64,000 nucleotides of DNA. Source: an uncultured Chlamydiales bacterium (lineage in GTDB: Bacteria; Chlamydiota; Chlamydiia; Chlamydiales; Rhabdochlamydiaceae). Where the stretch lies: positions 1,088,001 to 1,152,000 of the forward strand of contig OY969554.1 of NCBI GenBank assembly GCA_963700985.1, given 5' to 3'. Within the stretch, counting starts at the first letter, position 1. Each line of letters opens with the position of its first letter. The translations under genes and the position numbers were made by a program. Under the pieces are notes generated by a model that was not told the origin of the DNA, did not search any database, and saw only the letters and a list, made by a program, of their open reading frames with translations. Of the stretch, positions 37,009 to 59,676 are shown piece by piece.

Positions 37009-37476
37009 CTAATTTTTTGGATCTCTGCTTTGAAAGTCTGACATAAGAAACTCTACCTCTTTATATTTTTTCGCTAGTTGATCGATCCAATTTGTATCTC
37101 TTGAAAAAACTTCCCAAAACCCACCGTCAATCATCTCGATAACAGTATCGCAAGTTTCATACATTTTTTGATCTTCTTTATATCGATGAAGATTTTCTTT
37201 AATTCTACATCCAATAATAAGAACCTCAATTTCCTGGAAAATTTTTTTAGAAAGCTCAACTAATGATTCAAAGGTGCAAGTAAGCCCTTCTTCAGACTCA
37301 TTGACTTTTTTTTCTAGTTCACAGATCAGCTTTCCTTCTTTTTTAATGGGAGTTACATCAAACCATAATAATGCCCAATTGAACTGATTTGCATATGGAA
37401 TGTCTACTAATATCTCAGAAAGAGGAATACACTTCCCATCCCTTATATCAGATACCCTGAGTCCCTTAGTATTCAT
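37009..37476 (-). CDS. Putative immunity protein of Rhs 37473..42545
   Basis: ATGA overlap with the Rhs stop. Small, acidic, AT-rich, with IEMIDGGFWEVFS. Confidence 0.8.
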   Translation of the reverse strand: MNTKGLRVSDIRDGKCIPLSEILVDIPYANQFNWALLWFDVTPIKKEGKLICELEKKVNESEEGLTCTFESLVELSKKIFQEIEVLIIGCRIKENLHRYKEDQKMYETCDTVIEMIDGGFWEVFSRDTNWIDQLAKKYKEVEFLMSDFQSRDPKN

Positions 37477-40400
37477 AAATAGTTCCATCCCGTTACAGGT
37501 TGACCTTTGGGATCTCTAATAGGAGTTCCTCCGGTAGGATTTGGTTTATGTTCGTGTTGATGAGGATTTGGATGATTCTGAGGCCGGCCGTGGTCGGTAA
37601 AATCAATATCGCGCACTGGATTACCATGCTCATCAAATTCCCTTGCTTGAGGATATTCCCCTTTACGCCCTCCTTTTGTACCAAGTTGAGTATGTGGAGC
37701 ATCTACATCCGGAATATGCACTCCATCAGGAGTATTGGGCAATGGCCTATCTGGCACATATACATTAGTGTTCTTTTTTGCCTGAATAAGGGCATTTGGT
37801 ACCAGGCCAAAGATGTTTTGGGCGGCTCCATTAATTGCTTCGTTTGTGGAGTTTCCTGAACTGATTAAATGCTGGTCGATCTCGTAGCTCACAAAAGCTG
37901 TCACCGCTGCAACAGCAACTAACTTCCAAGTTAGTGCCAATAGGGGAACGGCAAATATAAATTGCCCATCGGGATCGACATAATGGAAGGGGTTGTTGAG
38001 GACATACTGGTAGAGGTTGATGCTGTCGATGAAGCCGGCGGGGTCGATGGTTAGCCAGCGGGAGCTAGCGGGGTCGTAGTAGCGCTTACCGAAATAGATG
38101 AGGTTTAGTTCGGGATCGAAGCGTTTGGAAGCATAGCGCCAGGGGTTGAAATAGCTTTCTGTTTTTGGGTTCAGTTCTTCGCCAAAGGCGGTGAAGGTGT
38201 AGCTGTGGGAGCAGGATTTATAGTGGAGATCGATGAGGCGGCAGATGCTGCCTTGGTAGTCGATGATGGGTGCAAAGGTTTGTCCTCCTATCTCGATGGC
38301 GATGGTTAAGGGGAATCTTTTTTGGTTTCTGAGGCCGAGGATGCGCAGGTTTACGGGTGCTGAAGTGGTTGTAAAGGCACCGATCTCATTTTGTCCATCA
38401 TAGAGGTAGTGCTCTTGGGTAGTGCGTGTTCCCCAGAAAGAGGGGGCTCGCACGGTTTTGCTGAGGCGTCTATCGAGTGGGTCGTAGGTGAACTCGACAG
38501 TGACTTCAGCATTCTCGGCTTTGATGAGGCGGTTTAAAGGATCGTAGGTGAAATTAAAAGCCCCTGAGGGGCTTTTTTTGAGGATCTGGTTGCCATTTAG
38601 GTCGAAGGTATGTTGGAGATCACCTGAAGTAAGCAGCTCGTTCAGGGCATTGATTTCGCATGTTTGGGTGTTTTTCTTGGTGCGGTTGTAGAGAGAATCA
38701 TAGGCGTAAGAGGAGCTATTTTCTGAGGTGAGCTGCGCTAGATCATCGTAGGTGTAGGTTTGTGGGGTTGTGTCGATGTGTCTGCTAAGAAGGTTGCCAC
38801 AGGGGTCAAAGCTGTTTTGTTGGAGGAAATAGCTGCTGCTTGTGGAAAGGTTCTGGCCTTTCAAATCGGTGCTATGCATGACTTGGCCAAGGTTGCCAAT
38901 CAAGCTTTCAACTACGAGATTGCCATCTTGATCGTATAGGTCGTAGCTATGGGTATAAAGTATTTCTCCAGAATAGGAAGCACGTGTGACGTTTCTTAAG
39001 AATAGTGGGTCGTATGTGTAGATCACTTTTCCTTTGTCAGGGAGAGTCAGAGTTATAGGTCGATCAAAGGCATCATAGGTTTTTTCGATTGCGAGGCCCC
39101 CTGGGAAAGTTTCTTTTAATATGTTGCCGGAGGGGTCGAGTTCTCGTTGGATAGAGCTTTTCTGCACTTCATCTGTGGCGGTGAGAAGTTGTCCTAAACA
39201 ATTGCGCAGGAAGGAGAATTGGATCTTTCCGTCGGAAGAGTGTAGATTTTGAAGGTGACCCATTGGGTGATAAGCATAGTTGAGGCATATGCCATCGGGT
39301 AAGGTTTTGCTTGCGAGTTTACCGGCAGGGGTATAGGTAAAAGTGGTTGTTCTGCTGTTGCTAGTATTAAAGGCACGAGTTAAAGATGCTGTTTGGTTTC
39401 GGTTGTTATAGGTGTATTTAGCGAGTTGGGTGTTTTTGTAGAGAGTATTCTCGTAAACGTGATCTTTTCTTAGAGTTAGGTTGCCGCTCGGATCGTAGAT
39501 TATTTCTTGGCGTGAGATGAGGACGTTTAGAGGATTTAAGATCTCTTTTTTGACCAACCTGCCATGTGCATCCTGCGTCTCAACCCTGATAATGTTACGT
39601 GGATCGGTTTCTACAATTTGGAGAACTTTTTGACCTAGTTGGTTGGTGTAGTTTTCATCATAGGTGGTTTTGGTCAAATAGCCCAGCGCATCTTGTTCCT
39701 CGATCTGTCTATGAAAAGAGTCGCATGTAAACGTGTGAATGGCTTCCTTGCCATTAATGTAACGGGTGATTGTGTTCTGGTTGCCATCTTCGTCATAGGT
39801 ATACGACACCCTGGTAAGCGGCTGACCTAAAACATCTGTTTTAGACTCCTCTATAAGACGTCCTTCAACGTCTCTTTTGTAATGAATCAGAAGTGTGTTA
39901 TCTCCATTGTATTTGTGGATGGTTGCAAGTTGGCCAAGGATGTCATAACTAAAATCGCTGATTTTGCCGCCAAACTCCTCGCGGGTTTTCCTGCCAGCAC
40001 CATCATAGAAGTATTGGATTAGATTGCCTTCTCTATCGGTTTCTGTAAGGAGATTAAAGCCGTTGTAGGTGAAAATTTCCTCGGCAATCGCGCTGCCGTC
40101 GGATGAGATGTATGTTTTTGAAAGCGTTCTGCCAAGTACATCATTTTGATACTGAACTGTAAGTCCATCAGAATCTGTATGTCGGGCGAGTTTTCCATTC
40201 TTGAAATAACGAAAGTGCTCTTTGCTGCCGTCTGGATATGTGATCTCAATTGGAGATCCATACGCGTTATAGCGATAGGTGGTTACATTCCCATTGGCAT
40301 CTGTTTTAGTTAGTTCTCTTCCGAAGGGATCATAGCTTGAGAATGTGGTAACAGAAGAGGCTTGGCCTTCTGCAGAAATAACTGATGGAAAGTCGGTGCA

Positions 40401-42545
40401 TGCAACCTGATTAACAAGAGGATCATAAGTGTAATGCGTTGTATCAGCGAAGGGCTCTGTTTTTTGAATCAGGCGATCATGCGCATCGTAGGAATAAGAG
40501 AAAAAATGCAAGATCTCATCATCCCCTCTTTCCATTTTTCCGCGCAGGCGTCCTTTTGTGTCGTGATGATAGGTTTTGAGTAGTCTTTGAGAAAAATTGG
40601 TCGCGCTGTCTATTTGTCCTTTTGGATCATAGGCATAGGTGGCTTGTTGTCCTAGGCGATTTGTTTCAGAGATGAGATCTCCGCGCTCATTGTATTGTTT
40701 ATAGATGGTGTAGGCGAGTACTCCATCAGCATCGTAAACCTCTTCTTGCACAACATTGCCTTGCTGGTCATAGATTAAATGACTTTTTTTCAAAGGCACT
40801 TCAATGCCGACTTCCCAATATTTCTCTTCTATCCATTCGGGCATATGTAGGAAAGGGACTTGCTGGCGCAAGATGTAATTTGTAATTGTCCTTTGCGAAA
40901 CGCCCAATAGGGTGTCTTCATCAGCACTTTCCCCATCATCTGAGATCTGCTGAATGAGATTGTTGCAGTCATCGTATTTGGAGAACTCTCGAAGAAGGAT
41001 TCTATCCCCATCCTTTGTTAACTTGGAAGTGACGAGGTTAGAATGGGGAAGATAGGTATAGCAGATGACTTTGCTATCATCACAGGCTTCTTTTAACAGC
41101 AGGTTTCTGCCATCTTGAGAAAACTCGCGTGCGATCGTGTAGTCTTCTTGAGTGCCACTCCCAGTTAAATCACCGTTAAAGACTTCCAAGATTGGATTGC
41201 CAAAAGCATCAAAGTTGTAAGATCTTTTGTAGAGAATGTTTTTTTGACCATCACGCATTTCAATCGATTTGAGCCAGTTCTTTTCAGTCCAGGAATAGGC
41301 TTTTTCTTTTTTGAGTTTCCCATCTTGGTCAAAATAGTGGATTGCATTTGTGAGCAGGTTTTTTGAGAAATGATAAGTGATCGAGGTCCCATCGCTGTTT
41401 TTAATTGTGGTTGTGCCTTCTTTTTCTCCAGCAATTGGGGGTTGATAGGTCAGTTCATGAACAGGATAGAAGCTATCGTTTTGACCTACTGGAAGTAAGA
41501 GCTTATGCACTTTGAAATGAGACTCCTTTCCAAAGCCCGTATGTTCGCATTTAAAGACATCGTTTTTTCCAGAATATGAATCTAATAGAAAGCGATCGTT
41601 ATAGTTCAGGCTTTCATAGCGGTAAAAAGGACTGCTTACGGATGTGAGAATAGACGGAGAAGAAGAACGAGATTCTTCATGGCCGCCCTTTATGCTCATC
41701 CTCCAATGAAGAGGTCTTTGTTGATGGGTGTAATCGACTGTCACGCCAGAAGAAGAGACATAATGCTGATTGTTGCGGGGCCTATGGATGGAGGCATAAA
41801 CAAAACGCTCTTTAGGATCTAAACTTTCCATAGCCATAGCTAAGGAATTTTGAGTATAGGTGTACCTAATCACTTTTCCATTTGGCAGAATCTCTTTTTC
41901 TAACGAAAGCATGAGCGTTCCAGTCAATGGAAATTTTGCGCGATAAAGACGCTTAGTTCCATCAGGAGCATGAACTGTAACCAGCTTACTTCCCTTGTCG
42001 CACGTAATGCGTGTATTTCTAGGGTCATACTTACCGCTTGGAAGATCTCCCGCAGCGTTGCTTAATGCATACGGAGGAGATAAAAGAGTGGTTGTTGAAT
42101 AGTTAGGACCAGATAAACGAAACGCCAGCGTAGTTCCATTGGGATCAGTGAGATGCACCTCCATGCGCTGTGCATCTAATTTGAGTCGAAGGTATGGAAG
42201 AATGCGCCACCCCTGATAATTATTTTTGAGATGCTCTTGCAAGTAGCGCTTGTTCCACTCTTTTCGGTAACGTTTGTGTTCTGGAAAAGAAGTGGGCATG
42301 TAAATAGGAACATAAACACGGCTAAGGCTGAGGTTTTGCGCGCCTTTAACGATCAGGTCAGTTTGTCTTAAAACAAGTTGACCACCGAGAGGGCTAATCA
42401 ACCCACCGATGAGATAACTTGGTTCGCTTGTAAGTGCAGCAACTTGATCGGGAGTAGAGAGAATAAACTCTTCGTGTGATTCTTCATCTGAAAAAGCAGC
42501 AATTGTCAGTAAGCAACAAATCAAGCTCAAAAAATAGCGCTGCAT
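37473..42545 (-). CDS. Rhs polymorphic toxin 1 (signal peptide; His-rich, Ntox24-like C-terminus)
   Basis: YD repeats, Rhs core NPWRYASKRFD...RYYDP...NNPFHYVDPDG, hydrophobic helix, then DIDFTDHGRPQNHPNPHQH. Confidence 0.93.
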   Translation of the reverse strand: MQRYFLSLICCLLTIAAFSDEESHEEFILSTPDQVAALTSEPSYLIGGLISPLGGQLVLRQTDLIVKGAQNLSLSRVYVPIYMPTSFPEHKRYRKEWNKRYLQEHLKNNYQGWRILPYLRLKLDAQRMEVHLTDPNGTTLAFRLSGPNYSTTTLLSPPYALSNAAGDLPSGKYDPRNTRITCDKGSKLVTVHAPDGTKRLYRAKFPLTGTLMLSLEKEILPNGKVIRYTYTQNSLAMAMESLDPKERFVYASIHRPRNNQHYVSSSGVTVDYTHQQRPLHWRMSIKGGHEESRSSSPSILTSVSSPFYRYESLNYNDRFLLDSYSGKNDVFKCEHTGFGKESHFKVHKLLLPVGQNDSFYPVHELTYQPPIAGEKEGTTTIKNSDGTSITYHFSKNLLTNAIHYFDQDGKLKKEKAYSWTEKNWLKSIEMRDGQKNILYKRSYNFDAFGNPILEVFNGDLTGSGTQEDYTIAREFSQDGRNLLLKEACDDSKVICYTYLPHSNLVTSKLTKDGDRILLREFSKYDDCNNLIQQISDDGESADEDTLLGVSQRTITNYILRQQVPFLHMPEWIEEKYWEVGIEVPLKKSHLIYDQQGNVVQEEVYDADGVLAYTIYKQYNERGDLISETNRLGQQATYAYDPKGQIDSATNFSQRLLKTYHHDTKGRLRGKMERGDDEILHFFSYSYDAHDRLIQKTEPFADTTHYTYDPLVNQVACTDFPSVISAEGQASSVTTFSSYDPFGRELTKTDANGNVTTYRYNAYGSPIEITYPDGSKEHFRYFKNGKLARHTDSDGLTVQYQNDVLGRTLSKTYISSDGSAIAEEIFTYNGFNLLTETDREGNLIQYFYDGAGRKTREEFGGKISDFSYDILGQLATIHKYNGDNTLLIHYKRDVEGRLIEESKTDVLGQPLTRVSYTYDEDGNQNTITRYINGKEAIHTFTCDSFHRQIEEQDALGYLTKTTYDENYTNQLGQKVLQIVETDPRNIIRVETQDAHGRLVKKEILNPLNVLISRQEIIYDPSGNLTLRKDHVYENTLYKNTQLAKYTYNNRNQTASLTRAFNTSNSRTTTFTYTPAGKLASKTLPDGICLNYAYHPMGHLQNLHSSDGKIQFSFLRNCLGQLLTATDEVQKSSIQRELDPSGNILKETFPGGLAIEKTYDAFDRPITLTLPDKGKVIYTYDPLFLRNVTRASYSGEILYTHSYDLYDQDGNLVVESLIGNLGQVMHSTDLKGQNLSTSSSYFLQQNSFDPCGNLLSRHIDTTPQTYTYDDLAQLTSENSSSYAYDSLYNRTKKNTQTCEINALNELLTSGDLQHTFDLNGNQILKKSPSGAFNFTYDPLNRLIKAENAEVTVEFTYDPLDRRLSKTVRAPSFWGTRTTQEHYLYDGQNEIGAFTTTSAPVNLRILGLRNQKRFPLTIAIEIGGQTFAPIIDYQGSICRLIDLHYKSCSHSYTFTAFGEELNPKTESYFNPWRYASKRFDPELNLIYFGKRYYDPASSRWLTIDPAGFIDSINLYQYVLNNPFHYVDPDGQFIFAVPLLALTWKLVAVAAVTAFVSYEIDQHLISSGNSTNEAINGAAQNIFGLVPNALIQAKKNTNVYVPDRPLPNTPDGVHIPDVDAPHTQLGTKGGRKGEYPQAREFDEHGNPVRDIDFTDHGRPQNHPNPHQHEHKPNPTGGTPIRDPKGQPVTGWNYL

Positions 42546-42562
42546 TCATGCCCTCCAAAGTC

Positions 42563-42603
42563 AAGAGGGAGAATTCTTAATACATGTTGCCCAGAAAGTC
42601 AAT
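42563..42603 (-). promoter_or_regulatory. Conserved Rhs promoter (copy 1)
   Basis: Reverse complement ATTGACTTTCTgggcaacaTGTATTAAGAATTCT (TTGACT-N17-TAAGAA). Conserved at 54001. Confidence 0.65.
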
Positions 42604-42721
42604 GCTTTCTGGATGTTTGTGTGAAATTGCAGGAATGATGAAAGCTTGTGCAATAAAAATTCACACAGTTGTGCATTTTTTCAAAGTTCTAGATATTATT
42701 GAGAGTGCGATTTAAGGAACG

Positions 42722-44476: not shown

Positions 44477-44500
44477 TAACTTTCAAAACTTGAAAATAAT

Positions 44501-48602: not shown

Positions 48603-51600
48603 CTATTTATAATACAGGTTCTCAAGGGGTATGTGTCCACCAACATTGACACCCCCCGTTTCTCCTGTAAATGGATTTATATATAACTCTTTTTCAAATC
48701 GTGCACTAGCTCTAGGAACATTACTATTAACATGTAGACCCTCTCTAAAACTAGCTTCGGGCTTAATCTTTAATCTCCAATCAAATTTGTTAAATGAGTT
48801 GAAGTTACCCCATGTTTCTGGTGCACCGGGTGAATTAGGAAATTTTTCCCAACCTTTGCTTTTTGCCCAGCCTCTTAAGATACGGATATTGTTTTGTCCT
48901 GTCTCTGAAAGATTTCGGGCAGCCTGGTGAAAGCGATTTAGTTGAAGTTCTTGAATAGCGGGCTTTGATATTTTCCGCAAGTCCATCATTCCTCTAGCTG
49001 CAGAGAAGCCCTTCTGAGCAAAGAAAGAGGCTCCTTTCACAACAGCTGCGTAAGCGCCGACTGCAAGCGTACCTAGTCCTATGCCGTCGTTCGTTCCGTG
49101 GCGGAATAAGCCATATCCTCTGTGGTTCATATCGCCAGGGAGGGCACTCTGCATCCAGCGCTTGCCTGACGCATGCAGGGCTGCGTTAGAGCGTTGAATT
49201 GATTCCCAATCTTGAGAGAAGGTGCTTCTACCACTCATCCAGTTGACAGATCGGAAAGGAACAGTTAGTCCCCAACCGGCTGTGGATAAGAAAGACGCGG
49301 TGTTGAGAGCGAAGTCGCCGATTCCATGTGCAGTACCAATGCCAGCTTGCTTGAAATCGTTGGTCGTGAAAGTTGAATACTGACGGCTGCCCAAGAGTCC
49401 GTAGAGATCTACGTGAGTAAGCGGAGAGTTTGAAACAAAGGCGTACATGTTGGGACCGGCATCGAGGCCAAGCGGATCTGGCGTGAGCCAGCGGCCGTAA
49501 TCGGAAAGGTAGTAGCGGCGGCCAAAGTAGACTAGGTTGGTTTCTTCATCGAGGCGTTTTGAGGAGAAGCGCCAGGGGTTGCGTGAAAGAGGTATAGGAT
49601 GCTTCGCTTCGCCAAATGCGGTGTAGCGATACTGTTCACAGGTTTGATCTGAAACCGAGACAAGCATGGCGACGTTGCCATGGATGTCATGCAGGGGTGC
49701 GTAGGTTTGGCCATGAAGTTCAAGCGCAACGGCTGCACCGATTTCAGCTTGAGGGGTTTTTCCGAGAATGCGCAGCTCTTGCAGTTTGCCACGAGCATCA
49801 ACGGCGCCTATTTCATTCTGATCATCGTAAAGATAAAAAACTGTCTGAGTGGGCTTCCAGAGGCCATTTTCAAAAATATAGACGGTTTTTGAAAGTCGTC
49901 GGTGATAAGAATCATAGGTGAACTTGAGACGCTGGGTGATGTTTTCGATGCTGATAAGACGATCCAAAGCATCGTAAGTATAATGCGCCTTAGCATGAGA
50001 GCTTGGGTTGCCATCTGGATTGTAAGTAAACTCGGTGGGCAGTTGATTTAAGCAATTGACTGCATAGGTAGAGGCGTCTTTCTGGAAACGATTGTAGAGC
50101 GAATCATAGCCATAGGTATGGTCTTTTTCTGAAACTAACTGATAGAGGTCGTCATATGCATAATCGAGTGTTTCATTATGGAGACGAGATTTGAGAATGT
50201 TGCCAACCTCATCATATCGCAGAATCTCGTGCGAAAAATAGCGTGAGTTATAGCTAATAGGTCGTCCTGCTGCATCGTAGGTGCGGTATAATTGGCCAAG
50301 GTTGCCAATCATCTCTTGAGAGAGAGGGTTCCCGGCAAGATCGTAGCTAGAATAAATGTGTGTATATTGGGCGTTACCATTTGAGTCGCGGCGTGCAACA
50401 GCGCGCAGATAAAGCGGATCAAAAGAGTAAGTGACAAATGAGTTGTCGGGAAGATCTAGGCGAGTGCGGCGGCCTTGTTTGTCATAGCCATTTTGAATGC
50501 TAAGATCCAAATTAAGATGATTGGATAGTGTTTCGCTAAGAAGGCGGCCTTTAGGATCATAGGTGCGTTTCAAAGTTGTTTTCTCACGCTCATCTCTACT
50601 TTGCAGTAAATGACCTAGGCGATTGTGGATGTAAGTATAATTGATCGTTTCATCGGAAGATTTTTGTGAGCGGAGATGATCAAGTGGATCATAAGTAATC
50701 GTAAGAGTGATGCCACTAGGCTTGGTCGTTTGAAAGAGCAAACCCTTGGGTGTATAGGCATATTCTGTAATTTTTTGCTCTGAAGTCCCTGCTGCTTCTG
50801 TAAGCATGCTGAGTCGATTTAGAGGACCATAACTCCACAATGTGGTAATGGTTCGATTGGGATTGAAAAGAGCGCTTTCTTTGCGGAACAGATTATCATT
50901 GGCATCATAGAAGCTCTCTTCTCGATAAAGACGTTCATTTCGCGAGTTACGTTTCTCAAATGTAGAACGCAAGTAATGCGAGTTAAAGCGCTCGATAAAT
51001 TGAAGACCCAGCGGATCGATAGTTGTCAGTTGATGTAGTTGATCGTTGTGAATAAAGGAGGTGCTATTTCCCAGTGGATCTTTGTTTTCAATTAGGCGAT
51101 TAAAAGAATCATATTTGAGAATTTCAGTTGATTCTTTTCCATGCACAAAGCGCGTAGTTGATTTTCTGTTGCCTGCTTCATCATAAGTGTAGGTAACTCT
51201 AGAAAGAATATTTCCATACGCATCTTCTTTGCGCTCTTCCAAGATATTATCTAAGAAATCGTATTCGGTGATGGAGAGAAGATTTTCTCTTTGGACAACA
51301 TTAAGTCTGCCTAATGAATCGTATGCGTAATCTACGCATTCTTGATTCTGCTCTTCGAAAATGATGCGGCCAGCACCATCATATGCGTAAAAGGTCGTGC
51401 TGCCTTCTGCATTGGTTTGAGCAATTAAGTGATAAGCATCGTAAGCGAAAGTTTCCTGCGAACAGATCTCTTCTTGCGAGGAGATTATTTTAGACAGGAT
51501 GCGTCCAAAAACATCGTAGGCATATGTTGTCTGTGTGCCATTTTGATCGATCTGTTTGTGGATAGTTCCATCGAGATTATAAATGAACTGCTCCTCCGTG

Positions 51601-53930
51601 CCATCTGGATGCTGGATGCGCATGGGTTTAGAGTAGGCATTATAGGTTGTGAGTGTGGTGTAACCTTGCGCATCGGTATGTGAGATTTCACAGCCTGCTG
51701 CATCATAGATCGAAGAAATAACGGATCGCAGCTCGCCCACGGCCTCTGGGTGGGTTTCTTTGAGATTGCCTAATGCGTCATAGACATAACGCGTCTCATA
51801 TCCATGTGGATCACGTGTCAAAATCTTATTGTTTCTTTTGTCATAAGCATGATGCGTAATGCGTATGAGGCTATCATCCCCTTCTTCCTTGGATTCAATC
51901 AGTCGATTCGAGTAGTCATACTTCATTTGCAGAAAACTACGGCCGCCGAAACTCTGAGAAAAAGTCTTATTCCCCACTTCATCATAAGCACTTTTAGAAA
52001 TCTGATTTAACGCATTAGTTTCTTCTTTTAGGCGTCCTTTCTCATCGTATTTGTACGTGAGGCTGAAGCGTAGTTGATCATTTGCATCATAGATGTCTTT
52101 TTGAGAAATCCGTCCGCCCGTTGTGTAGTGAAGAACAGTTTTCTTGAGAAGCTTTTCAGTTAGCCCATCCCAATATTTTTCTTCGAGAATTTGAGGCATC
52201 CCAAAATAAGGTTGGTCGCTTTTAGGATAAATACACTGGATAAGGCGTGTTTTAACATCGCTTAAATCATTCTTATCTGGTGTTGAACCATCATCGGTCA
52301 GTTCGCGGATCAGAATTCGATCGGCATTATACTCATAGAATTTCCGTCTTCTAACCTTACCTCGCTCATATGAGAGCTCCAAAGTAGGAAGATTAGTGCC
52401 TGGAAGATACTCATATCTAATGTCAGACCCATTATCTTCGCTGCGTCGAGTGAGAAGGTTTCTGCCATCTTGAGAATACTCAAAACGTTTGGAGTAGGCT
52501 TCGACGCCGTTTTCAATGGGAAAGTTATTAGAGTCGAGCGAAAGAGAAATGCCCTGTCCGCTCAAATTTCCATAGAATTTTTCTTGCACAACATTCCCAT
52601 GCTGATCATAAAAATAGCGCGTGGCGTGCATAGGTCTGCGATTTTCATCTAAGAGAATTTTGCAAAGCAGGTTCGATGCATCTGTTGCATTGTTTGATCC
52701 CCAAACGAAGCGCGTGCTATTGTATAGTTTTTCCGGTGTTGAAAACCGATCGATAGAAGTCAGGCGTAGATTTTCGTCCCAATAATAATGAGTTGGTACA
52801 CCCTCGGCATCAAAAACCTGAGTTTTACGACTTGGAATATCGTAATAGAATCTTCGTGTGGGTAAAGAATTAGCATCTGTTCCTACGGGAGCTGAAAGAG
52901 CTTTAACGCGGCAGTAAAGAGGATCGCTCATCTCTCTAATTTTTGCGCCATTGTCATTTTTACCAAGATTGTAATAGCTAACGTTGAGACGACGTGAATT
53001 TGGAAGGAAAATTTCCGAGAGAAGTCTCCGACCACCTTCGATATTTTGATATCTCATTTCTTCGGGAGGGAGATCTGAAGAATCTATATGATGCAAATAC
53101 CAGCCACCACTTTCTTTAGGACCATCACATAAATAGCGATATTGTAGAATGCGCCCATCACTCGTATGTACATCCAGATTGCGTGTGTCTAAATACTTAT
53201 GTCCTTTCTTCTCTTTCAGACTACCATGAAAGTGAAAGGTAGCTTGGGCATAAGTTTTTTGCCCGCTAGGATCCGCAGTGCGTATTGAAGTGATCTTTTC
53301 ATTGTCCCAGCTATAGATAATTTGATTACCATCTGGCAACCCCTCGGAAACGAGAATAAACACAACTTGCGAATCATCAACATCTCTGGCCTTTTTTTGT
53401 TCTTTGGTAAGAGCATTGTAAACTCTTCTGGTTCCATTTGGACAGTAGACGATGAGTTCCTTACCAATGCTACTTTCTCTGACATACTGGTTTTTTAAGT
53501 TGTTATTAGCAGAAAGGGCCCCTCGAGCAGTATTCGTAAGTCCTTTGGCATCCGTGGTTAAGTCTAGCGGCAGAAAGATCACTTCCTGGGGATTTTTCTT
53601 CTTTTTATGAGGCTCAATTCTTCGATTTGAATGATATCTCAAAACTGTGCCGTTCGGCTCTATCAATTTTAAGACACCAGTTGTAAAAAGAACCGCTTCG
53701 TTACCAGGAAAAAGTCTCCAGGTCTTCTCTCCTTTTGAGCTAATATACGTGCGCTTCAGATGCAAAGGCTCGACGCCTTGGACAACAACATCTTCTTCAA
53801 AACTAAAAAGATCGCCTGTAATAGCACTGACAAGGCCATCGACAAGAGAACTGGGATCATTCTCAGTAACAGCCACCTGCCCGAAAAGAGTCGTAGTAAC
53901 TGAAAAGAATAAAAGAAGAAAATACTTCAT
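48603..53930 (-). CDS. Rhs polymorphic toxin 2 (signal peptide; unassigned nuclease-like C-terminus)
   Basis: MKYFLLLFFSVTTTLFG leader, YD repeats, core NPWRFSSKRLD...WLTPDP...NSPLTHVDLYG, and a C-terminal domain ending YINPFTG...GGHIPL. Confidence 0.93.
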   Translation of the reverse strand: MKYFLLLFFSVTTTLFGQVAVTENDPSSLVDGLVSAITGDLFSFEEDVVVQGVEPLHLKRTYISSKGEKTWRLFPGNEAVLFTTGVLKLIEPNGTVLRYHSNRRIEPHKKKKNPQEVIFLPLDLTTDAKGLTNTARGALSANNNLKNQYVRESSIGKELIVYCPNGTRRVYNALTKEQKKARDVDDSQVVFILVSEGLPDGNQIIYSWDNEKITSIRTADPSGQKTYAQATFHFHGSLKEKKGHKYLDTRNLDVHTSDGRILQYRYLCDGPKESGGWYLHHIDSSDLPPEEMRYQNIEGGRRLLSEIFLPNSRRLNVSYYNLGKNDNGAKIREMSDPLYCRVKALSAPVGTDANSLPTRRFYYDIPSRKTQVFDAEGVPTHYYWDENLRLTSIDRFSTPEKLYNSTRFVWGSNNATDASNLLCKILLDENRRPMHATRYFYDQHGNVVQEKFYGNLSGQGISLSLDSNNFPIENGVEAYSKRFEYSQDGRNLLTRRSEDNGSDIRYEYLPGTNLPTLELSYERGKVRRRKFYEYNADRILIRELTDDGSTPDKNDLSDVKTRLIQCIYPKSDQPYFGMPQILEEKYWDGLTEKLLKKTVLHYTTGGRISQKDIYDANDQLRFSLTYKYDEKGRLKEETNALNQISKSAYDEVGNKTFSQSFGGRSFLQMKYDYSNRLIESKEEGDDSLIRITHHAYDKRNNKILTRDPHGYETRYVYDALGNLKETHPEAVGELRSVISSIYDAAGCEISHTDAQGYTTLTTYNAYSKPMRIQHPDGTEEQFIYNLDGTIHKQIDQNGTQTTYAYDVFGRILSKIISSQEEICSQETFAYDAYHLIAQTNAEGSTTFYAYDGAGRIIFEEQNQECVDYAYDSLGRLNVVQRENLLSITEYDFLDNILEERKEDAYGNILSRVTYTYDEAGNRKSTTRFVHGKESTEILKYDSFNRLIENKDPLGNSTSFIHNDQLHQLTTIDPLGLQFIERFNSHYLRSTFEKRNSRNERLYREESFYDANDNLFRKESALFNPNRTITTLWSYGPLNRLSMLTEAAGTSEQKITEYAYTPKGLLFQTTKPSGITLTITYDPLDHLRSQKSSDETINYTYIHNRLGHLLQSRDEREKTTLKRTYDPKGRLLSETLSNHLNLDLSIQNGYDKQGRRTRLDLPDNSFVTYSFDPLYLRAVARRDSNGNAQYTHIYSSYDLAGNPLSQEMIGNLGQLYRTYDAAGRPISYNSRYFSHEILRYDEVGNILKSRLHNETLDYAYDDLYQLVSEKDHTYGYDSLYNRFQKDASTYAVNCLNQLPTEFTYNPDGNPSSHAKAHYTYDALDRLISIENITQRLKFTYDSYHRRLSKTVYIFENGLWKPTQTVFYLYDDQNEIGAVDARGKLQELRILGKTPQAEIGAAVALELHGQTYAPLHDIHGNVAMLVSVSDQTCEQYRYTAFGEAKHPIPLSRNPWRFSSKRLDEETNLVYFGRRYYLSDYGRWLTPDPLGLDAGPNMYAFVSNSPLTHVDLYGLLGSRQYSTFTTNDFKQAGIGTAHGIGDFALNTASFLSTAGWGLTVPFRSVNWMSGRSTFSQDWESIQRSNAALHASGKRWMQSALPGDMNHRGYGLFRHGTNDGIGLGTLAVGAYAAVVKGASFFAQKGFSAARGMMDLRKISKPAIQELQLNRFHQAARNLSETGQNNIRILRGWAKSKGWEKFPNSPGAPETWGNFNSFNKFDWRLKIKPEASFREGLHVNSNVPRASARFEKELYINPFTGETGGVNVGGHIPLENLYYK

Positions 53931-54040: not shown

Positions 54041-54084
54041 TTGCACAAGCTTTCATGTTTTGTGTTTTCTTTTGGAGGGAACGG

Positions 54085-57000
54085 ATGATGCGCTATTTAT
54101 TGAGTCTGATTTGCTGCTTATTAACGGTGGGTGCTTTTTCTGAAGAAGAAGATCAGGATGCATTCATCATTTCTACTCCAGATCAAGTTGCGGCACTTTC
54201 AAGTGAACCAAACTATCTCATTGGTGGTTTGATCAGTCCTCTGAGTGGTCAGCCTGTTTTAAGGCAAACAGATCTTGTTGTTAAAGGCGCTCAGAACCTA
54301 AGCCTTAGCCGCACGTATATTCCGCCTTACATGCCCGTTGCTTTCGAGAAACATAAACATAACAAGAAGGAATGGGATAAGTATCACTTACATCAACATA
54401 TACGCGACAACTATAAAGGCTGGCAGTTTTTACCCCACCTGAAACTTCGGCTAATCTCTCGATCTATGGAGGTTCATCTTACTGATCCCAATGGAATGAC
54501 ATTGGCTTTTCATTTATCAGGTCCAAACTATTCAACAGCAACTTTAGCCTCCCCTTCTTATGCAATCACTAATACTGTAGGCGAGCTACCAAGTGGCAAA
54601 TATGATCCACGAAATACGAGAATTTCTTACGAAGATAACGGCAATAAACTCGTTGTTCATGCACCTGATGGAGCTTCTCGATTTTACTATAGAAAAGGAG
54701 CCGCAAGCAAACGTTTATACATTCTTGAAAAAGAAATTCTCCCTAATGGAAAAGTTCTCAAATACACATACGACGAGAAACTTAAGCTAATCTCCGTTGA
54801 GAGTTTAGATCCTAAAGAACGTTATGTCTATGCCTCTATTCGCATTCAAGAACCTCATGGTTCATTTCACTTCCTTTCTTCTACTGGTACGACTGTTGAC
54901 TATAGTTACCAGAGAAGGCCGATACACGTAAGAATCAAGGAAAAAGCCAAGGGTCGCGAAACTATTCAAGAATCTAATTACACCTGCCGTCCGATTCTTA
55001 CTTCTGTAAGCAGCCCATTTTACCGATATGAGAGCTTGAATTATGGAGACCGTTTTCTATTAGACTCATATTTTGGAAAAAATGAAGTTTTCAAATGCGA
55101 ACACGCAAGTTTTGGAGAGGGTGTTCCACATTTCAAGGTTCACAAACTCCTTTTGCCGGTGGGTCAAAATGACAGTTTTTATCCTGTGCATGAAATGGTC
55201 TATCAGCCACCAGTGGCTGGAGAAAAAGCCGGGACAACAACAGTTAAGAACAGTGATGGAACCTCAATCACTTATCATTTTTCAAAAAACCTTCTGACGA
55301 CGGCAATTCAATATTTCGGACAGGATGGCAAACTCAAAAAAGAGAAGATCTTCTCTTGGAGCGAGAAAAACTGGCTTAAATCTATTGAAATGCGAGATGA
55401 CCAGAACAACTCTCTCTACAAAAGATCTTACGAATTTGATGGATTTGGCAATCCAATTTCCGAAATCTTCGTCGGAGATCTAACGGGAAATGGCGCACAA
55501 GAGAGCTATACCATTACTAGAGAGTTTTCCCAAGATGGACGAAACCTTCTTCTAAAAGAAGCGCATGAAAGTGGAAAAGTCATCTGTTTTGCCTATCTTC
55601 CTAATTCAAATCTTGTCACTTCCAAGATAACGAAAGACGGTGACAGAATTCTTCTCCGTGAATTTTCAAAATATGACGATTGTCACAATCTCGTTCAGAA
55701 TATTTTGGATGATGGAGAAAGCTCTGATGAGAGCATCCTAGCTGGGGTTACTGAGCGAACGATCACAAATTACACATTGCGTCAGCAGGCTCCATTCCTA
55801 CATATGCCTGAATGGATAGAAGAGAAATATTGGGAAGGTGGCAGTGAAAAACTGCTGAAAAAAATTCATTTAATCTACGACCAGCATGGCAATATTGCAC
55901 AAGAAGAGGTTCATGATGCGGATGGGATACTCGCATACATCATCTACAAACAATACAACGAGCGTGGCGACCTTGTCACAGAAACAAATCGTTTAGGACA
56001 GCAAGCCACTTATACTTACGATCCGCGTGGACGACTTGAAAGCTCTCTTAATTTTTCCCAGAAACTGCTTAAAACTTTTCATCATGATATGAAAGGTCGT
56101 TTCCGCGAGAAAATAGAGAAAGGCGATGGCGAAATTGCTCATGCTTTCTCTTATGCATACGATGCTCATGATCGCCTAATTCAGAAAACCGAGCCTTTCT
56201 CTGATACAACACATTACACCTATGATCCGCTTGTCAGCCAGATCACACGGACAGATTCTCCTTCTGTGACTTCCGCGGATGGGCAGGCCATCCCAGTTAC
56301 AACTTTTGCAACTTATGATCCTTTTGGAAGAGAAGTAACTAAAGTAGATGCAAATGGCCATACAACGACCTACCGCTATAACGCATACGGATCACCGACT
56401 GAGATCACTTACCCAGACAGCAGCAAAGAATATTTCCGCTATACCAAAAAAGGAAAACTTGCAAGCCACATAGATCCCGATGGCCTTACCATTCAATACC
56501 AAAATGATCTGCTGGATAGAGTTCTCTCAAAAACTTACATCTCAGCTGACGGTAAAACACTCGCTGAAGAAGTTTTTACCTACAACGGTTTTAATCTCCT
56601 TACGGAAACCGATCGAGAAGGCAACCTGACTCAATACACTTATGATGGTACCGGAAGAAAGATCCGCGAAGAGTTTTGTGGCAAAATCACAAGCTTTAGC
56701 TATGACTCACTAGGGCAGCTTTCAATCCTTTGCAAATACAATGGAGACAACACCCTTCAAGTTCATTACAAAAGAGACGTAGAAGGACGTGTAATCGAGG
56801 AATCTCAAACAGACATCTCGAATCAGCTTCTTACTAGAATTTCCTATACTTTTGATGAAGACGGCAATCGAAATACCATTGTGCGTTACATCAATGGAAA
56901 AGAAGCGATTAACGCATTTACTTATGATGCTTTCCACAGGCTGATCGAAGAGCAAGACGCGCTTGGCTATGAAAGTAAAACAGTCTATCAAGAAGCTTAC

Positions 57001-59244
57001 ACTAACCAACTCGGTCAAAAAGTGTTGCAAACTTCGACAACTGACCCAAGAGGCGTCACTACTGTTGAAACTCAAGATGCCTATGGCAGGGTAGTCAAAA
57101 AAGAGGTCTTAAATTCTCAAAAAGCGCCAATCTCAAGTGCAGAAACTTACCATGATGCAAATGGTAATCTTACCCTACAAAAGGATCATTTATTCGAAAA
57201 TGAGCATTACCTGAAGACACAGTGCACAAAATATACTTACACAAACCGCAATCAGATAGCCTCCTTAATACGCGCTTTGGGAACTCCAAATGCCAGAAGC
57301 ACCACCTTCACCTATACGCCTTCAGGCAAGAGAGAGAGTAAAACTCTGCCCGATGGCATCAGCCTAACTTATGGCTATCACCCCTTAGGTTATCTTCAGA
57401 ATTTACAATCATCCGATGGGAAAATTCAGTTCACCTTCCTGCGCAACCGGTTGGGGCAACTCCTCTGCGCAACTGATGAAGTGCAAAAGAGCTCTATCCA
57501 TAGAGAACTCGATCCCTGTGGCAACATCATCAGAGAAGAGTTTCCAAGTGGCCTTACCCTAGAAAAAACTTATGATGCTTTTGATCGACCTCTGACTTTG
57601 ACACTCCCAGACAAAGGAGAAGTGATCTACACCTATGACCCATTATTTTTACGAAGTGTTACACGCACCTCTGCAGGTGACACTCTTTACACGCATAGTT
57701 ACGACCTATATGATCAAGACGGCAATCTTGTTGTTGAAAGCTTGATTGGCAATCTCGGTCGCGTGATGCACAGCACAGATTCCAAAGGTCAAAAGCTATC
57801 TATCAATTGCTCATACTTCTCGCAACAGAACCGCTTTGACCCTTGCGGAAATCTCGTGAGCAGTACTGTAGATGCAACTCCTCAAACCTACATCTATGAT
57901 GATTTATCACAGTTAACCTCGGAAAAAAGCAGCCCAAGTAGCTTCATTTACGCCTATGATTCTTTATACAATCGAACAAAGAAGAATGACCAAATCTGCG
58001 AAACCAATGAGCTGAATGAACTACTCAGCTCAGGAGACATCCGTTGCTCTTACGATCGCAATGGCAATCAGACCCAGCAACAGAGCTTTTCTAAGACTTA
58101 TAATTTTACCTACGACCCCTTGAACCGACTCATCAGAGCTGAAAATTCTGAAGTCACCATAGAGTTCGCCTATGATCCATTAGACAGACGCCTGAGCAAA
58201 ACCGTGCATTCTTCCTCATTCTGGGGAAAATATGTCGACGTAGAGCACTATCTCTACGATGGACAAAACGAGATTGGAGCTTTCACTAGCCCAACTTCTG
58301 TCAAAAACCTGCGCGTTCTAGGACTTACAAAGCCACATACCCTCCCCTCAACGATTGCCATCGAATTAGGAGGTCAGGCTTTTGCACCCATACTTGATTA
58401 CCAAGGCAGCGTGCGGCAACTCATCGATCTCTATTACAAATCGTGTACTGCGAGCTACAACTTCACTGCCTTCGGTGAAGAACTCAATCCAAAATATGAG
58501 AGATATTTCAACCCATGGCGCTTTGTCTCAAAACGCTTCGACCCCGAACTCAATCTTATCTACTTTGGTAAACGCTACTACGATCCAGCTCTGGCTCGCT
58601 GGCTAACAACAGACCCAGCTGGCTTCGTCGATAGCATCAACCTTTACCAATATGTGCTGAATAATCCATTCCGTTATTGCGACCCTGACGGACAGTTTCT
58701 ACAGCTTGCAGTTCCTCTTGTTATATGGGGAGCTGAAGCTATTTTTCCTGCACTTGCCACTTACGTTGCGCCTCTGATTTATGGAGCCGTAACAGGAACT
58801 ATTGCATATGGTGGCTACAAGGTTGTTCACGCATTAAATCAAGCTGGACAAAATACTTCCTTCAATCCGATGGAGAAAGCTTATATTAATAGATACATCA
58901 GTCAGCAAGAAAAAGCGGCAAAAATGCAAAGGAAAAAGAAGGGAGAAGTGGATGCGAAACTATCCGATGACCCTCTTAATGATCCAAATCTAGAAGATGT
59001 AAGTCATCCACAAGCCAAAGAAAAAGGACATCATAAATTTAAAGACAAGCGTACTGGTCAGATAATTGAATATGATAAAGCAAAACCGGGCTCACCTGGC
59101 CATAAAGGACATGATCATTACCATCGACCTAATCCAAATACAACAGGAGAAAATGATACCTACCTCGATTCAAAAGGAAATCCCGTTCCTGATGGTAGTG
59201 AATCTTCACATCTTTATCCGCCCGAATGGATTTGGTGGAAATAA
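54085..59244 (+). CDS. Rhs polymorphic toxin 3 (close paralogue of Rhs 1, different C-terminus)
   Basis: MMRYLLSLICCLLTVGAFS leader, core ending NNPFRYCDPDG, and a C-terminal domain with YDKAKPG...HDHYHRPNP...YLDSKGNPV...SSHLYP. Confidence 0.93.
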   Translation: MMRYLLSLICCLLTVGAFSEEEDQDAFIISTPDQVAALSSEPNYLIGGLISPLSGQPVLRQTDLVVKGAQNLSLSRTYIPPYMPVAFEKHKHNKKEWDKYHLHQHIRDNYKGWQFLPHLKLRLISRSMEVHLTDPNGMTLAFHLSGPNYSTATLASPSYAITNTVGELPSGKYDPRNTRISYEDNGNKLVVHAPDGASRFYYRKGAASKRLYILEKEILPNGKVLKYTYDEKLKLISVESLDPKERYVYASIRIQEPHGSFHFLSSTGTTVDYSYQRRPIHVRIKEKAKGRETIQESNYTCRPILTSVSSPFYRYESLNYGDRFLLDSYFGKNEVFKCEHASFGEGVPHFKVHKLLLPVGQNDSFYPVHEMVYQPPVAGEKAGTTTVKNSDGTSITYHFSKNLLTTAIQYFGQDGKLKKEKIFSWSEKNWLKSIEMRDDQNNSLYKRSYEFDGFGNPISEIFVGDLTGNGAQESYTITREFSQDGRNLLLKEAHESGKVICFAYLPNSNLVTSKITKDGDRILLREFSKYDDCHNLVQNILDDGESSDESILAGVTERTITNYTLRQQAPFLHMPEWIEEKYWEGGSEKLLKKIHLIYDQHGNIAQEEVHDADGILAYIIYKQYNERGDLVTETNRLGQQATYTYDPRGRLESSLNFSQKLLKTFHHDMKGRFREKIEKGDGEIAHAFSYAYDAHDRLIQKTEPFSDTTHYTYDPLVSQITRTDSPSVTSADGQAIPVTTFATYDPFGREVTKVDANGHTTTYRYNAYGSPTEITYPDSSKEYFRYTKKGKLASHIDPDGLTIQYQNDLLDRVLSKTYISADGKTLAEEVFTYNGFNLLTETDREGNLTQYTYDGTGRKIREEFCGKITSFSYDSLGQLSILCKYNGDNTLQVHYKRDVEGRVIEESQTDISNQLLTRISYTFDEDGNRNTIVRYINGKEAINAFTYDAFHRLIEEQDALGYESKTVYQEAYTNQLGQKVLQTSTTDPRGVTTVETQDAYGRVVKKEVLNSQKAPISSAETYHDANGNLTLQKDHLFENEHYLKTQCTKYTYTNRNQIASLIRALGTPNARSTTFTYTPSGKRESKTLPDGISLTYGYHPLGYLQNLQSSDGKIQFTFLRNRLGQLLCATDEVQKSSIHRELDPCGNIIREEFPSGLTLEKTYDAFDRPLTLTLPDKGEVIYTYDPLFLRSVTRTSAGDTLYTHSYDLYDQDGNLVVESLIGNLGRVMHSTDSKGQKLSINCSYFSQQNRFDPCGNLVSSTVDATPQTYIYDDLSQLTSEKSSPSSFIYAYDSLYNRTKKNDQICETNELNELLSSGDIRCSYDRNGNQTQQQSFSKTYNFTYDPLNRLIRAENSEVTIEFAYDPLDRRLSKTVHSSSFWGKYVDVEHYLYDGQNEIGAFTSPTSVKNLRVLGLTKPHTLPSTIAIELGGQAFAPILDYQGSVRQLIDLYYKSCTASYNFTAFGEELNPKYERYFNPWRFVSKRFDPELNLIYFGKRYYDPALARWLTTDPAGFVDSINLYQYVLNNPFRYCDPDGQFLQLAVPLVIWGAEAIFPALATYVAPLIYGAVTGTIAYGGYKVVHALNQAGQNTSFNPMEKAYINRYISQQEKAAKMQRKKKGEVDAKLSDDPLNDPNLEDVSHPQAKEKGHHKFKDKRTGQIIEYDKAKPGSPGHKGHDHYHRPNPNTTGENDTYLDSKGNPVPDGSESSHLYPPEWIWWK

Positions 59245-59268
59245 CCATTTACTAGAGTACAATTATTT

Positions 59269-59676
59269 ATGAATATCTCCAAATATGCGGCCTTTTTTCA
59301 TGATGGATCCGTTTTTGATATTAAACATACAGGAAGCAAAATTGAACTTTCAATGCGAAGTGCAGAGATGGACGAAGAAGATGTCAAAGATGATATTGTC
59401 CTCTCAAAAGATGATCGCATTCAAGGAAAATTACATATTGAGGGGATCAAAAGCATAGAAATCAACAGCAAGCTTTTTTTAAACGTGCTACAAAAAGAGT
59501 ATGATAATGGAAGGATTTTTGATTTCGAAATCGCGGAAAATTCCATTGAATTATCAATAGACTGGGTAAATTTCCCTCCTCATTCAGAAGTTAATGATTT
59601 TTCAGTTATTAGGATTGAAGCTAGCAACATTTACTGGGAGAATATTCCAAATCTAGTAGATCCAAAAAACGCCTAA
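59269..59676 (+). CDS. Putative immunity protein of Rhs 3
   Basis: 24 nt after the Rhs stop. Small, acidic, beta-rich, with an FHDG motif. Confidence 0.75.
   Translation: MNISKYAAFFHDGSVFDIKHTGSKIELSMRSAEMDEEDVKDDIVLSKDDRIQGKLHIEGIKSIEINSKLFLNVLQKEYDNGRIFDFEIAENSIELSIDWVNFPPHSEVNDFSVIRIEASNIYWENIPNLVDPKNA

Follow-up and report, generated by a model that had tools for sequence, protein, structure and literature searches.

Three putative Sec-dependent Rhs toxin–immunity modules in the closed genome of a Chlamydiales bacterium in which no type VI secretion families were found

Rhs toxins have so far been studied almost wholly as cargo of type VI secretion systems (T6SS) or of Tc toxins, and for the way in which a leader-bearing Rhs protein leaves a Gram-negative cell and enters its target there is essentially only one precedent, a Xanthomonas bacteriocin. 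This question is raised by a stretch of 64,000 nucleotides from an uncultured Chlamydiales bacterium (assembly GCA_963700985.1, contig OY969554.1, positions 1,088,001 to 1,152,000), referred to here as the window, which contains three Rhs genes with putative Sec-type leaders, each accompanied by a small gene. The computational analysis carried out on this locus indicates that the three pairs are Rhs polymorphic toxin–immunity modules of the Sec/type II secretion system (T2SS) class, most likely used on other bacteria that share the host or its vacuole, a reading held with moderate confidence. The kind of system is already known and has been outlined for chlamydiae since 2012 (Zhang 2012); what is added here is the genome-wide exclusion of contractile systems, the prevalence of Rhs in the phylum, the conservation of the modules, a predicted complex of the first toxin with its partner and a contrast between linkers. 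The genes, given as window positions, are the following:

37473..42545, minus strand: Rhs gene 1, 1690 aa, with a putative leader at about residues 1-17, a YD shell and a core that runs to DPDG at residue 1527 (window 37965)
37476-37964, minus strand: C-terminal tail of Rhs gene 1, 163 aa beyond the core
37009..37476, minus strand: candidate immunity gene I1, 155 aa read from M5 (the longest open reading frame, ORF, starts at 37488), isoelectric point (pI) 4.84, joined to the Rhs stop by an ATGA overlap
48603..53930, minus strand: Rhs gene 2, 1775 aa, with a putative leader at about residues 1-17 and a core that runs to DLYG at residue 1511 (window 49398)
48247..48585, minus strand: candidate immunity gene I2, 112 aa, pI 4.95, 17 nt from Rhs gene 2
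54085..59244, plus strand: Rhs gene 3, 1719 aa read from M11, with a core that runs to DPDG at window 58692
59269..59676, plus strand: candidate immunity gene I3, 135 aa, pI 4.61, 24 nt from Rhs gene 3

The three Rhs genes were found intact, with Sec-like leaders and with cores ending in DPDG or DLYG, as a preliminary description made from the letters of the window had stated. The repeat family RHS_repeat (PF05593) matched the products of genes 1, 2 and 3 with E 1.4e-47, 2e-51 and 5.4e-50, respectively, the YD repeats of TIGR01643 were detected across the three proteins with E 1e-37 to 1e-47, and the Rhs-associated core TIGR03696 is complete in all of them (model positions 1-2 to 76 of 76) and occupies residues 1452-1528, 1436-1512 and 1471-1547, respectively. 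The paired core motifs are DPAG...DPDG in genes 1 and 3 and DPLG...DLYG in gene 2, whose second motif is a variant, and the tails past the core comprise 163, 264 and 183 aa in the same order of genes.

The putative leaders read MQRYFLSLICCLLTIAAF/SDEE in gene 1, MKYFLLLFFSVTTTLFG/QV in gene 2 and MMRYLLSLICCLLTVGAF/SEEE in gene 3 when the latter is read from M11. The leaders are called signal peptides because of their n/h/c layout, which is conserved among the paralogues and among homologues at other loci. In the five Rhs genes of the genome the N-terminus consists of a basic residue, 12-16 hydrophobic residues and then small residues; small residues occupy positions -3 and -1 of the predicted cleavage sites, and an acidic stretch follows the leader in Rhs genes 1 and 3. 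This layout is kept in 5/5 paralogues, as well as in the full-length homologues examined from other chlamydial loci. The longest ORF of Rhs gene 3 spans 54055-59244 (plus strand, 1729 aa, in whose numbering the DPDG is residue 1546), but the true start is probably M11, at window 54085, because of a GGAGG located 6-8 nt upstream, the alignment with gene 1 and the upstream sequence that both genes have in common. This sequence, found in the regions 42546-42610 and 53990-54054, is a near-identical stretch, TTGACTTTCT...GTATTAAGAATTCT.CCTCTT, which points to duplication of a promoter or regulatory site. The paralogous Rhs genes 1 and 3 have 68% identity over their full length, yet their tails have no detectable homology, and gene 2 is about 32% identical to both and 38-40% identical to two more Rhs genes located elsewhere in the genome.

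The window belongs to a replicon closed as a single contig of 2,067,302 bp (99% complete), in which the components of the known Rhs carriers have been searched for. The closed genome has no match to Hcp (PF05638), VipB/TssC (PF05943), PAAR (PF05488), Phage_GPD/VgrG (PF05954), DcrB/EagR (PF08786), Phage_sheath_1 (PF04984) or SpvB (PF03534), and positive controls were matched in the searches for Hcp, TssC, PAAR, VgrG, DcrB/EagR, phage sheath and SpvB; TcA_TcB_BD (PF18276) had no match in the genome in a search made without a positive control. The Rhs proteins themselves have no PAAR, SpvB, TcdB-mid or two-partner secretion (TPS) domain. The preliminary description had reported that PAAR, VgrG, Hcp, EagR and TpsB genes were missing from the window, and for the first four the absence extends to the whole genome. 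A TpsB is present, the only one of the genome, about 225 kb from the window and adjoining its own TpsA. This two-partner pair (positions 861218-864800 of the contig, G000:C1, or L008:3218-6800) consists of a TpsA of 628 aa, in which a TPS domain was matched with E 1e-30, and of a transporter of the ShlB/TpsB type with 560 aa. A complete T6SS elsewhere, a finding that the preliminary description had allowed to count against it, was not found in the closed genome.

Three secretins are encoded in the genome, one of them within a gspD-gspE-gspF type II secretion operon (gspD of 777 aa; gspE match with E 1e-141). The outer-membrane route had been called uncharacterised, a term that need not apply in view of this operon and of the published Rhs bacteriocin that depends on the T2SS (PMC7259588). 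Export would most plausibly take place through the type II secretion system of the genome or lead to the cell surface.

The chlamydial origin supposed from the window was borne out, as the nearest Rhs loci to its genes are all from metagenome-assembled genomes (MAGs) of Chlamydiales, Simkaniaceae or Parachlamydiaceae and three matches to the TLC nucleotide translocase (ATP/ADP translocase) were found in the genome. By gene content, that is, by the TLC translocases, the organism appears to be an obligate intracellular energy parasite. A search with gene 1 at E 1e-20 or better detected Rhs homologues in 236/301 sampled genomes of the phylum, in 149/165 genera; in one family of genomes of about 1 Mb only 1/30 was positive, and none of 25 in its main genus. 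The T6SS sheath protein TssC was found in 10/300 sampled genomes (9/165 genera, E about 1e-101 to 1e-113), among them five of the 61 genomes of the family to which the window belongs and 0/2 other genomes of its genus, so that a T6SS-like system would be carried by a minority of chlamydiae as judged from this marker. Since 236 genomes are Rhs-positive and 10 TssC-positive, at least 226 Rhs-positive genomes have no TssC match, and the chlamydiae therefore provide, in large number, natural Rhs systems without a T6SS.

A small acidic gene tightly linked to each Rhs gene had also been described, and this was confirmed (pI 4.61-4.95; ATGA overlap or spacing of 17 and 24 nt). None of I1, I2 and I3 has a hydrophobic N-terminal leader, which agrees with toxins that act in the cytoplasm. 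A total of 95 relatives of I1 were found at E 0.001 or better, nearly all of them unnamed, the named ones being chlamydial or 'Verrucomicrobia' MAG proteins. A profile scan with I1 revealed 30 loci, in 17 of which a CT1-like-ended ORF (CT1, CT2 and CT3 are the C-terminal toxin domains of genes 1, 2 and 3) lies directly upstream of the I1-like gene, and at 7 loci there are two to four I1 paralogues. The scan of CT2 loci, carried out with a 14-sequence alignment (A5), has shown an I2-like ORF directly behind the CT2-like ORF in 35/38 loci, with tandem CT2/I2 cassettes at several of them. An I3-like ORF was found directly behind a CT3-like ORF beside I1-like genes at L022, L033 and L041, and orphan CT2/I2 and CT3/I3 cassettes occur in tandem. 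As far as gene order and sequence conservation can tell, the joint inheritance with the toxins marks each of the three small genes as a cognate immunity gene. The CT2/I2 module is also present in MAGs labelled Candidatus Berkiella, Coxiellaceae, Gammaproteobacteria and Abditibacterium (L047, L055, L059, L073, L075, L078), a distribution that suggests exchange of cassettes among unrelated bacteria, some of which live inside protists.

The predicted complex of CT1 with I1 reached an ipSAE of 0.73 in 3/3 runs, and the best of three controls had 0.00; the mark of the tool is passed by 58/80 solved complexes and by 2/110 mismatched pairs. Contact agreement between the runs was at least 88%, with a partner pLDDT of 90-91, and the predicted interface takes in the toxin residues H66 and H72, which are invariant. 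This model supports binding of toxin 1 by I1. Altogether, the genome searches and the conservation of the modules support the description of these genes as coding for Rhs toxins that bear leaders, do not depend on a T6SS and are accompanied by cognate immunity genes. The three toxin domains are located as follows:

37476..37760, minus strand: toxin domain 1 (CT1), about 95 aa, modelled as all-beta, weakly Ntox24-like
48606..48950, minus strand: toxin domain 2 (CT2), about 115 aa, alpha+beta, with the motifs LRGWAKSKGW, KIKPE, PRFDAR and HIPL
58975..59241, plus strand: toxin domain 3 (CT3), His-rich, with the pattern SHP..KGH..GHK..DHYH..NPN..SHLYPP, HNH/EndoVII-like in language-model features only

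The C-terminal domains are distinct, as had been proposed, and no relatedness among the three tails is detectable. CT2 gave no pair with CT1 or CT3 better than E 1.8. A single family comprising CT1 and CT3 was considered and rejected (BLAST identity of 27% over 146 aa with E 0.007 in a six-sequence database; hhalign probability of 15% over only 36 columns). Exchange of tails is also illustrated by a Parachlamydia locus (L004), in which a homologous Rhs shell carries an Ntox37 tail (35 bits, cut-off 27.8) and is followed by a different downstream gene.

The residues H32, T33, Y45, R49, E50, D65, H66, H72, H76 and H78 are invariant in CT1 (A4 alignment numbering). Its similarity to Ntox24 (PF15529) has E 0.0072 and 17 bits, below the cut-off of 24 bits, and its AlphaFold2 (AF2) model is all-beta with pLDDT 75, one of the five models being confident. 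Foldseek gave no PDB match at E 0.001 or better for the CT1 model, and for CT2 a weak one with PT7(Bc) (PDB 8owu). A profile of CT1 (A1) compared with PDB sequences aligned only the hydrophobic linker region, and weakly, with phage/PVC baseplate proteins (E 0.013-0.016), a match treated as compositional. The CT1-type domain is cosmopolitan and was found in 110 carriers, among proteins of 929-2958 aa, which include many chlamydial Rhs proteins, E. coli prePAAR-PAAR-Rhs proteins, actinobacterial HINT toxins, Bacteroidota DUF6443 proteins and SpvB/TcdB-type proteins, and CT1 shares 70% identity, along 84 residues, with the C-terminal end of an E. coli prePAAR-PAAR-Rhs protein. One further carrier, P0283 (1605 aa, Simkaniaceae MAG), has a UCH domain at residues 163-435 and a C-terminal CT1-type domain with no Rhs repeats detected, that is, a eukaryote-directed domain and a polymorphic-toxin domain in one chain.

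The tail of gene 2 consists of two parts, a Gly-rich helical bundle and the 115-residue alpha+beta domain CT2 (model pLDDT 87). The PT7(Bc) match is the nearest toxin-like fold to CT2 (Foldseek top match with E 0.52; VIA Z 6.0, rmsd 3.0 Å, 75/76 residues aligned, 16% identity), and the CT2 profile found no match among PDB sequences. PT7 is described as a Mg-dependent non-specific DNase toxic to E. coli and yeast (bioRxiv 10.1101/2021.10.19.465003). The N-terminal part of tail 2 resembles MafB with an Atlas feature score of 0.94 and 163 shared features, and has no Pfam match at E up to 10; this model-derived likeness is taken as a lead only. The His-rich motif of CT3 is conserved in its homologues, and CT3 resembles Tox-HNH-EHHH (PF15657) by language-model features only (Atlas feature score 0.91, 183-184 shared features), with no Pfam match at E up to 10. 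The NCBIfam scan gave no further toxin or immunity names. The toxins are probably nucleases by these similarities, and the activity assignments for all three are leads, not results.

Between the core and the toxin domains lie the following segments, whose hydrophobicity is expressed as the Kyte-Doolittle mean over 19 residues (KD19):

37884..37964, minus strand: hydrophobic linker of gene 1, residues 1528-1554, directly past the predicted autocleavage motif, KD19 2.17
48975..49364, minus strand: Gly-rich helical bundle of tail 2 (AF2 model), tail residues 12-141, between the core and toxin domain 2
58699..58824, plus strand: hydrophobic linker of gene 3, KD19 1.64-1.68, conserved in CT3 homologues

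A hydrophobic helix past the core had been attributed to all three genes; it is present in genes 1 and 3, whereas the tail of gene 2 stays below KD19 1.6 and has the Gly-rich bundle instead (AF2 pLDDT mostly above 85, with structural matches that are generic helical only, Z about 7). In many homologues the single helix is replaced by two or three segments of Gly-zipper type, with no positive-inside flank, and a Pfam scan of the linkers alone gave no match. The comparison of linkers took in the 110 proteins that carry the toxin-1 domain, with class labels taken from precomputed Pfam annotation and 11/110 carriers unparsed. In all of the PAAR or PAAR-like carriers (19/19) the linker comprises 14 residues and its KD19 does not exceed -0.85, whereas 51 of the 64 carriers without assigned N-terminal class, a heterogeneous group that includes the chlamydial leader-bearing Rhs proteins, have a linker with a median of 75 residues and a window of KD19 1.5 or higher. 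In the E. coli PAAR carriers a prePAAR motif (PF25799) is located at residues 1-53, and the N-terminal residues include a hydrophobic stretch. We infer that the hydrophobic module beside the toxin in Sec-type Rhs proteins helps the freed toxin to cross the target membrane. Eag chaperones shield the transmembrane (TM) regions of prePAAR, and by analogy the shell may shield the hydrophobic linker. The presence of a 14-residue linker in PAAR carriers and of a membrane-like one of about 75 residues elsewhere, on the same toxin domain, makes self-translocation a testable hypothesis.

Two more leader-bearing Rhs genes were found outside the window. The fourth Rhs protein of the genome (1760 aa; G000:C1:46684-51966, plus strand, L012:2684-7966) has a tail that, scanned alone, matches DUF687 (PF05095; E 1e-6, 32.9 bits against a cut-off of 25 bits), a family that we take to be Chlamydia-specific, and is followed with a 4-nt overlap by an ORF of 174 aa without Pfam match (L012:7963-8487). 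The Rhs framework may here carry a cargo that is aimed at the host or resembles a lipase. The fifth (1613 aa; G000:C1:326142-330983, minus strand, L013:5142-9983) has a tail of only 53 residues, and a 603-aa family-2 glycosyltransferase ORF (L013:3330-5141) begins, in the same frame, with the codon that follows its stop; the two may form a split or read-through glycosyltransferase toxin, or the second may be merely a tightly packed neighbour.

The class to which the window genes belong was defined by Zhang, de Souza, Anantharaman, Iyer and Aravind in 2012 as 'T2SS/Sec-dependent', its marks being a signal peptide, RHS repeats, a toxin that varies at the C-terminus and an immunity gene next to it (PMC3482391). 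The anatomy of the window genes, with their putative leaders, corresponds to this, and that work was purely computational; its passages considered here do not mention the hydrophobic linker or the phylum-wide prevalence. The tables of the same study place chlamydiae under the RHS-linked Ntox24 and Ntox37 and under Imm32, Imm53 and Imm54, and its text already proposes intra-host conflict among amoeba endosymbionts with immunity genes, relates toxins encoded next to immunity genes in endosymbionts (Simkania, Odyssella, Rickettsia bellii) to intra-specific conflict and reads the immunity-poor Waddlia as aiming its toxins at the host (PMC3482391). Ntox24 is suggested there as a possible metal-independent endoRNase and is also reported in classical toxin–antitoxin systems (PMC3482391). 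A cluster of 'RhsB, RhsD - RHS family proteins' appears among the predicted chlamydial outer membrane proteins in Heinz et al. 2009 (PMC2811131), and Waddlia rhs9 is tabulated as a target of the regulator Euo in de Barsy et al. 2016. These two papers and Zhang 2012 were the only ones found for Rhs together with chlamydial genera, none was found for environmental chlamydiae together with toxin/immunity, and no functional study of chlamydial Rhs was found in the literature searched, whose scope left out subscription journals and supplements.

The precedent for export is Bcn-A of Xanthomonas perforans, a supernatant-borne bacteriocin assigned to the RHS family by bioinformatics, whose activity is lost in an xpsD (gspD, T2SS) mutant and whose immunity gene is ORF5, according to Marutani-Hert et al. 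2020 (PMC7259588). It resembles the window genes in being an Rhs-family toxin of a Gram-negative bacterium whose immunity gene lies downstream, and among known systems it may be regarded as the closest in function to a leader-bearing Rhs of a genome with T2SS and without T6SS. The differences are several: Bcn-A has 1398 aa and requires two accessory genes, ORF2 and ORF4, of which one codes for a protein with a signal peptide and two TM helices; the window loci have no evident counterpart to these ORFs; and the producer is free-living and plant-associated, unlike an intracellular chlamydia.

Other relatives differ mainly in their carriers. The E. coli prePAAR-PAAR-Rhs proteins (for example P0302, 1359 aa) have the same shell and core and the same toxin domain as CT1, but a prePAAR motif and a PAAR N-terminus with the 14-residue linker, in place of the leader and the hydrophobic linker of about 75 residues of the chlamydial proteins. 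Delivery of the prePAAR-PAAR-Rhs architecture by the T6SS is established. WapA of Bacillus subtilis is a YD/Rhs protein exported by Sec that acts in contact-dependent competition, its C-terminal nuclease being polymorphic and its immunity gene adjacent; it is Gram-positive and wall-anchored and has no outer membrane to cross, unlike the chlamydial Rhs proteins. In the Tc BC component (TcB/TcC) a YD shell encloses the C-terminal toxin and frees it by autoproteolysis. Some carriers of the CT1 domain do have SpvB and TcdB-mid domains (P0316), whereas the window genes have no SpvB/TcdB domains and their genome has no match to SpvB or, in the search without positive control, to TcA_TcB_BD.

From these elements the following sequence of events can be proposed. 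The precursor would pass the inner membrane via Sec and lose its leader, and the shell would fold in the periplasm round the tail, which the core would cut free. Encapsulation by the shell and autocleavage are established from solved structures of T6SS Rhs and Tc BC proteins. The loaded shell would then leave the cell, most plausibly by the T2SS, or stay on the surface, until it meets another cell, through whose membrane the hydrophobic or Gly-rich helical linker would help the toxin; the linker would thus take over the job done in the E. coli carriers of the CT1 domain by the T6SS and the N-terminal prePAAR region. The toxins would act in the target cytoplasm, probably as nucleases, with kin protected by I1, I2 and I3, and the likely targets would be rival chlamydiae or other intracellular bacteria of protists.

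The readings that compete with this one differ in where the shell goes and whom the toxin meets. That the proteins are ordinary T6SS or Tc cargo, with their machinery encoded elsewhere in the genome, is close to refuted: T6SS, sheath and SpvB families were absent from the closed genome with the positive controls working, the N-termini are leaders and not PAAR or SpvB, and at least 226 of the 236 Rhs-positive genomes have no TssC match, so that little is left to this explanation beyond the TcA-binding-domain search without positive control and the presence of TssC in 10/300 genomes of the phylum and in 5/61 of the same family. It is improbable, though less so, that the proteins are envelope-resident adhesins or structural shells in which the linker is a stop-transfer anchor and the tail and its partner, if active, behave like a membrane-tethered toxin–antitoxin pair. 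By Sec rules, a cleavable leader followed by one C-terminal TM-grade segment (KD19 2.17) leads to an N-out, C-in topology; the solved structures of Rhs and Tc proteins, however, show the tail inside the shell, in many homologues two or three Gly-zipper-like segments with no positive-inside flank stand in place of one helix, and delivered polymorphic toxins are characterised by exchange of C-termini, orphan cassettes and arrays of immunity genes. The RHS cluster among predicted outer membrane proteins in Heinz 2009 (PMC2811131) and the occurrence of Ntox24 in classical toxin–antitoxin systems in Zhang 2012 speak for this reading.

A more serious competitor, although rather unlikely as it stands, is that the toxins are host-directed effectors, the shells being delivered to the inclusion or the host cytosol to hit the host, a predator or a competitor eukaryote, with the small genes serving only for self-protection. 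For an obligate intracellular energy parasite with TLC translocases the nearest foreign cell is always the host, and the near-universality of Rhs in the phylum outside the Chlamydiaceae (236/301 genomes, 149/165 genera) looks like a core trait of lifestyle. The DUF687-like tail of the fourth Rhs and the link between UCH and the CT1 domain in the Simkaniaceae protein P0283 point in the same direction, as do the reported toxicity to yeast of PT7, the nearest fold to CT2, and the host-directed reading of Waddlia toxins in Zhang 2012. The extra immunity arrays and orphan cassettes at related loci are nevertheless hard to explain without incoming bacterial toxins, the tight 1:1 co-inheritance of toxin and immunity gene and the presence of CT1 in T6SS-effector-like E. 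coli proteins fit interbacterial use, and Zhang 2012 argue that toxins of endosymbionts, where an immunity gene adjoins, reflect intra-specific conflict. Interbacterial use is the best supported, because of the immunity arrays and orphan cassettes of the relatives, the tight co-inheritance and the CT1 domain common to T6SS-effector-like E. coli proteins. The earlier argument that cognate immunity genes imply bacterial targets is weak alone, since any nuclease active in the cytoplasm needs self-protection, and it has been strengthened by the immunity arrays, the orphan cassettes and the occurrence of CT1 in E. coli prePAAR-PAAR-Rhs proteins. The competition that the description placed within a single host cell or inclusion would be one possibility, next to a host target.

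Several observations weigh against the use of these modules on other bacteria or against parts of the proposed route. An immunity gene is needed by a nuclease whatever its target, and PT7 is reported to kill both yeast and E. coli (bioRxiv 10.1101/2021.10.19.465003). In L001, the closest orthologue of gene 1, the CT1-like tail is 58% identical and the downstream gene has no BLAST similarity to I1. The genome itself has no orphan cassettes or spare immunity genes, as tblastn and blastp searches with the three tails and the three small genes returned only themselves. The nuclease assignments combine a CT1/Ntox24 match below cut-off, a CT2/PT7 match with E 0.52 and Z 6.0 only and, for CT3, language-model features only. 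Dependence on the T2SS is deduced from the presence of genes and from one distant precedent. The linker comparison relies on Pfam-derived class labels with a mixed unassigned class and 11/110 carriers unparsed, and a TM-grade segment past a cleavable leader could serve as a Sec stop-transfer anchor, which would leave the toxin in the cytoplasm of the producer.

The presence of immunity genes and arrays in obligate intracellular bacteria bears on direct competition between symbionts inside hosts, and its bearing on the exclusion of other intracellular bacteria by symbionts is speculation. A broader proposal, advanced only tentatively, is that environmental chlamydiae, despite their obligate intracellular life, wage routine T6SS-free Rhs warfare on bacteria, in which the shell is exported by Sec/T2SS and a membrane-insertion linker beside the toxin, shielded by the shell, replaces the injection machine and prePAAR, and that the cassettes circulate among unrelated bacteria living inside protists (Chlamydiota, Coxiellaceae and Berkiella). 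If this were true, the host cell or vacuole would be a real arena for interbacterial competition.

The DNA of the window was found in one public sequencing run, of soil metagenome DNA (share 0.72); two further runs of the same study had a share of 0.00, and no RNA run containing it was listed in the one sequencing-run search made. Two neighbours converge on the small genes, a 527-aa protein on I2 (window 46644-48227, plus strand), with several long hydrophobic stretches and no Pfam match, and a 273-aa protein on I3 (window 59778-60599, minus strand), with a weak match to an outer membrane protein beta-barrel (PF13505, E 9e-5, below cut-off); no tie of either to the Rhs genes was established. 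Two leucine-rich-repeat proteins are encoded between Rhs genes 1 and 2 (window 42755-44476 and 44501-45559, both on the plus strand), and a RING-variant zinc-finger protein is encoded beyond I3 (window 60792-61331, plus strand). Leucine-rich-repeat and RING-variant domains are eukaryote-like and typical for host-interaction proteins of environmental chlamydiae.

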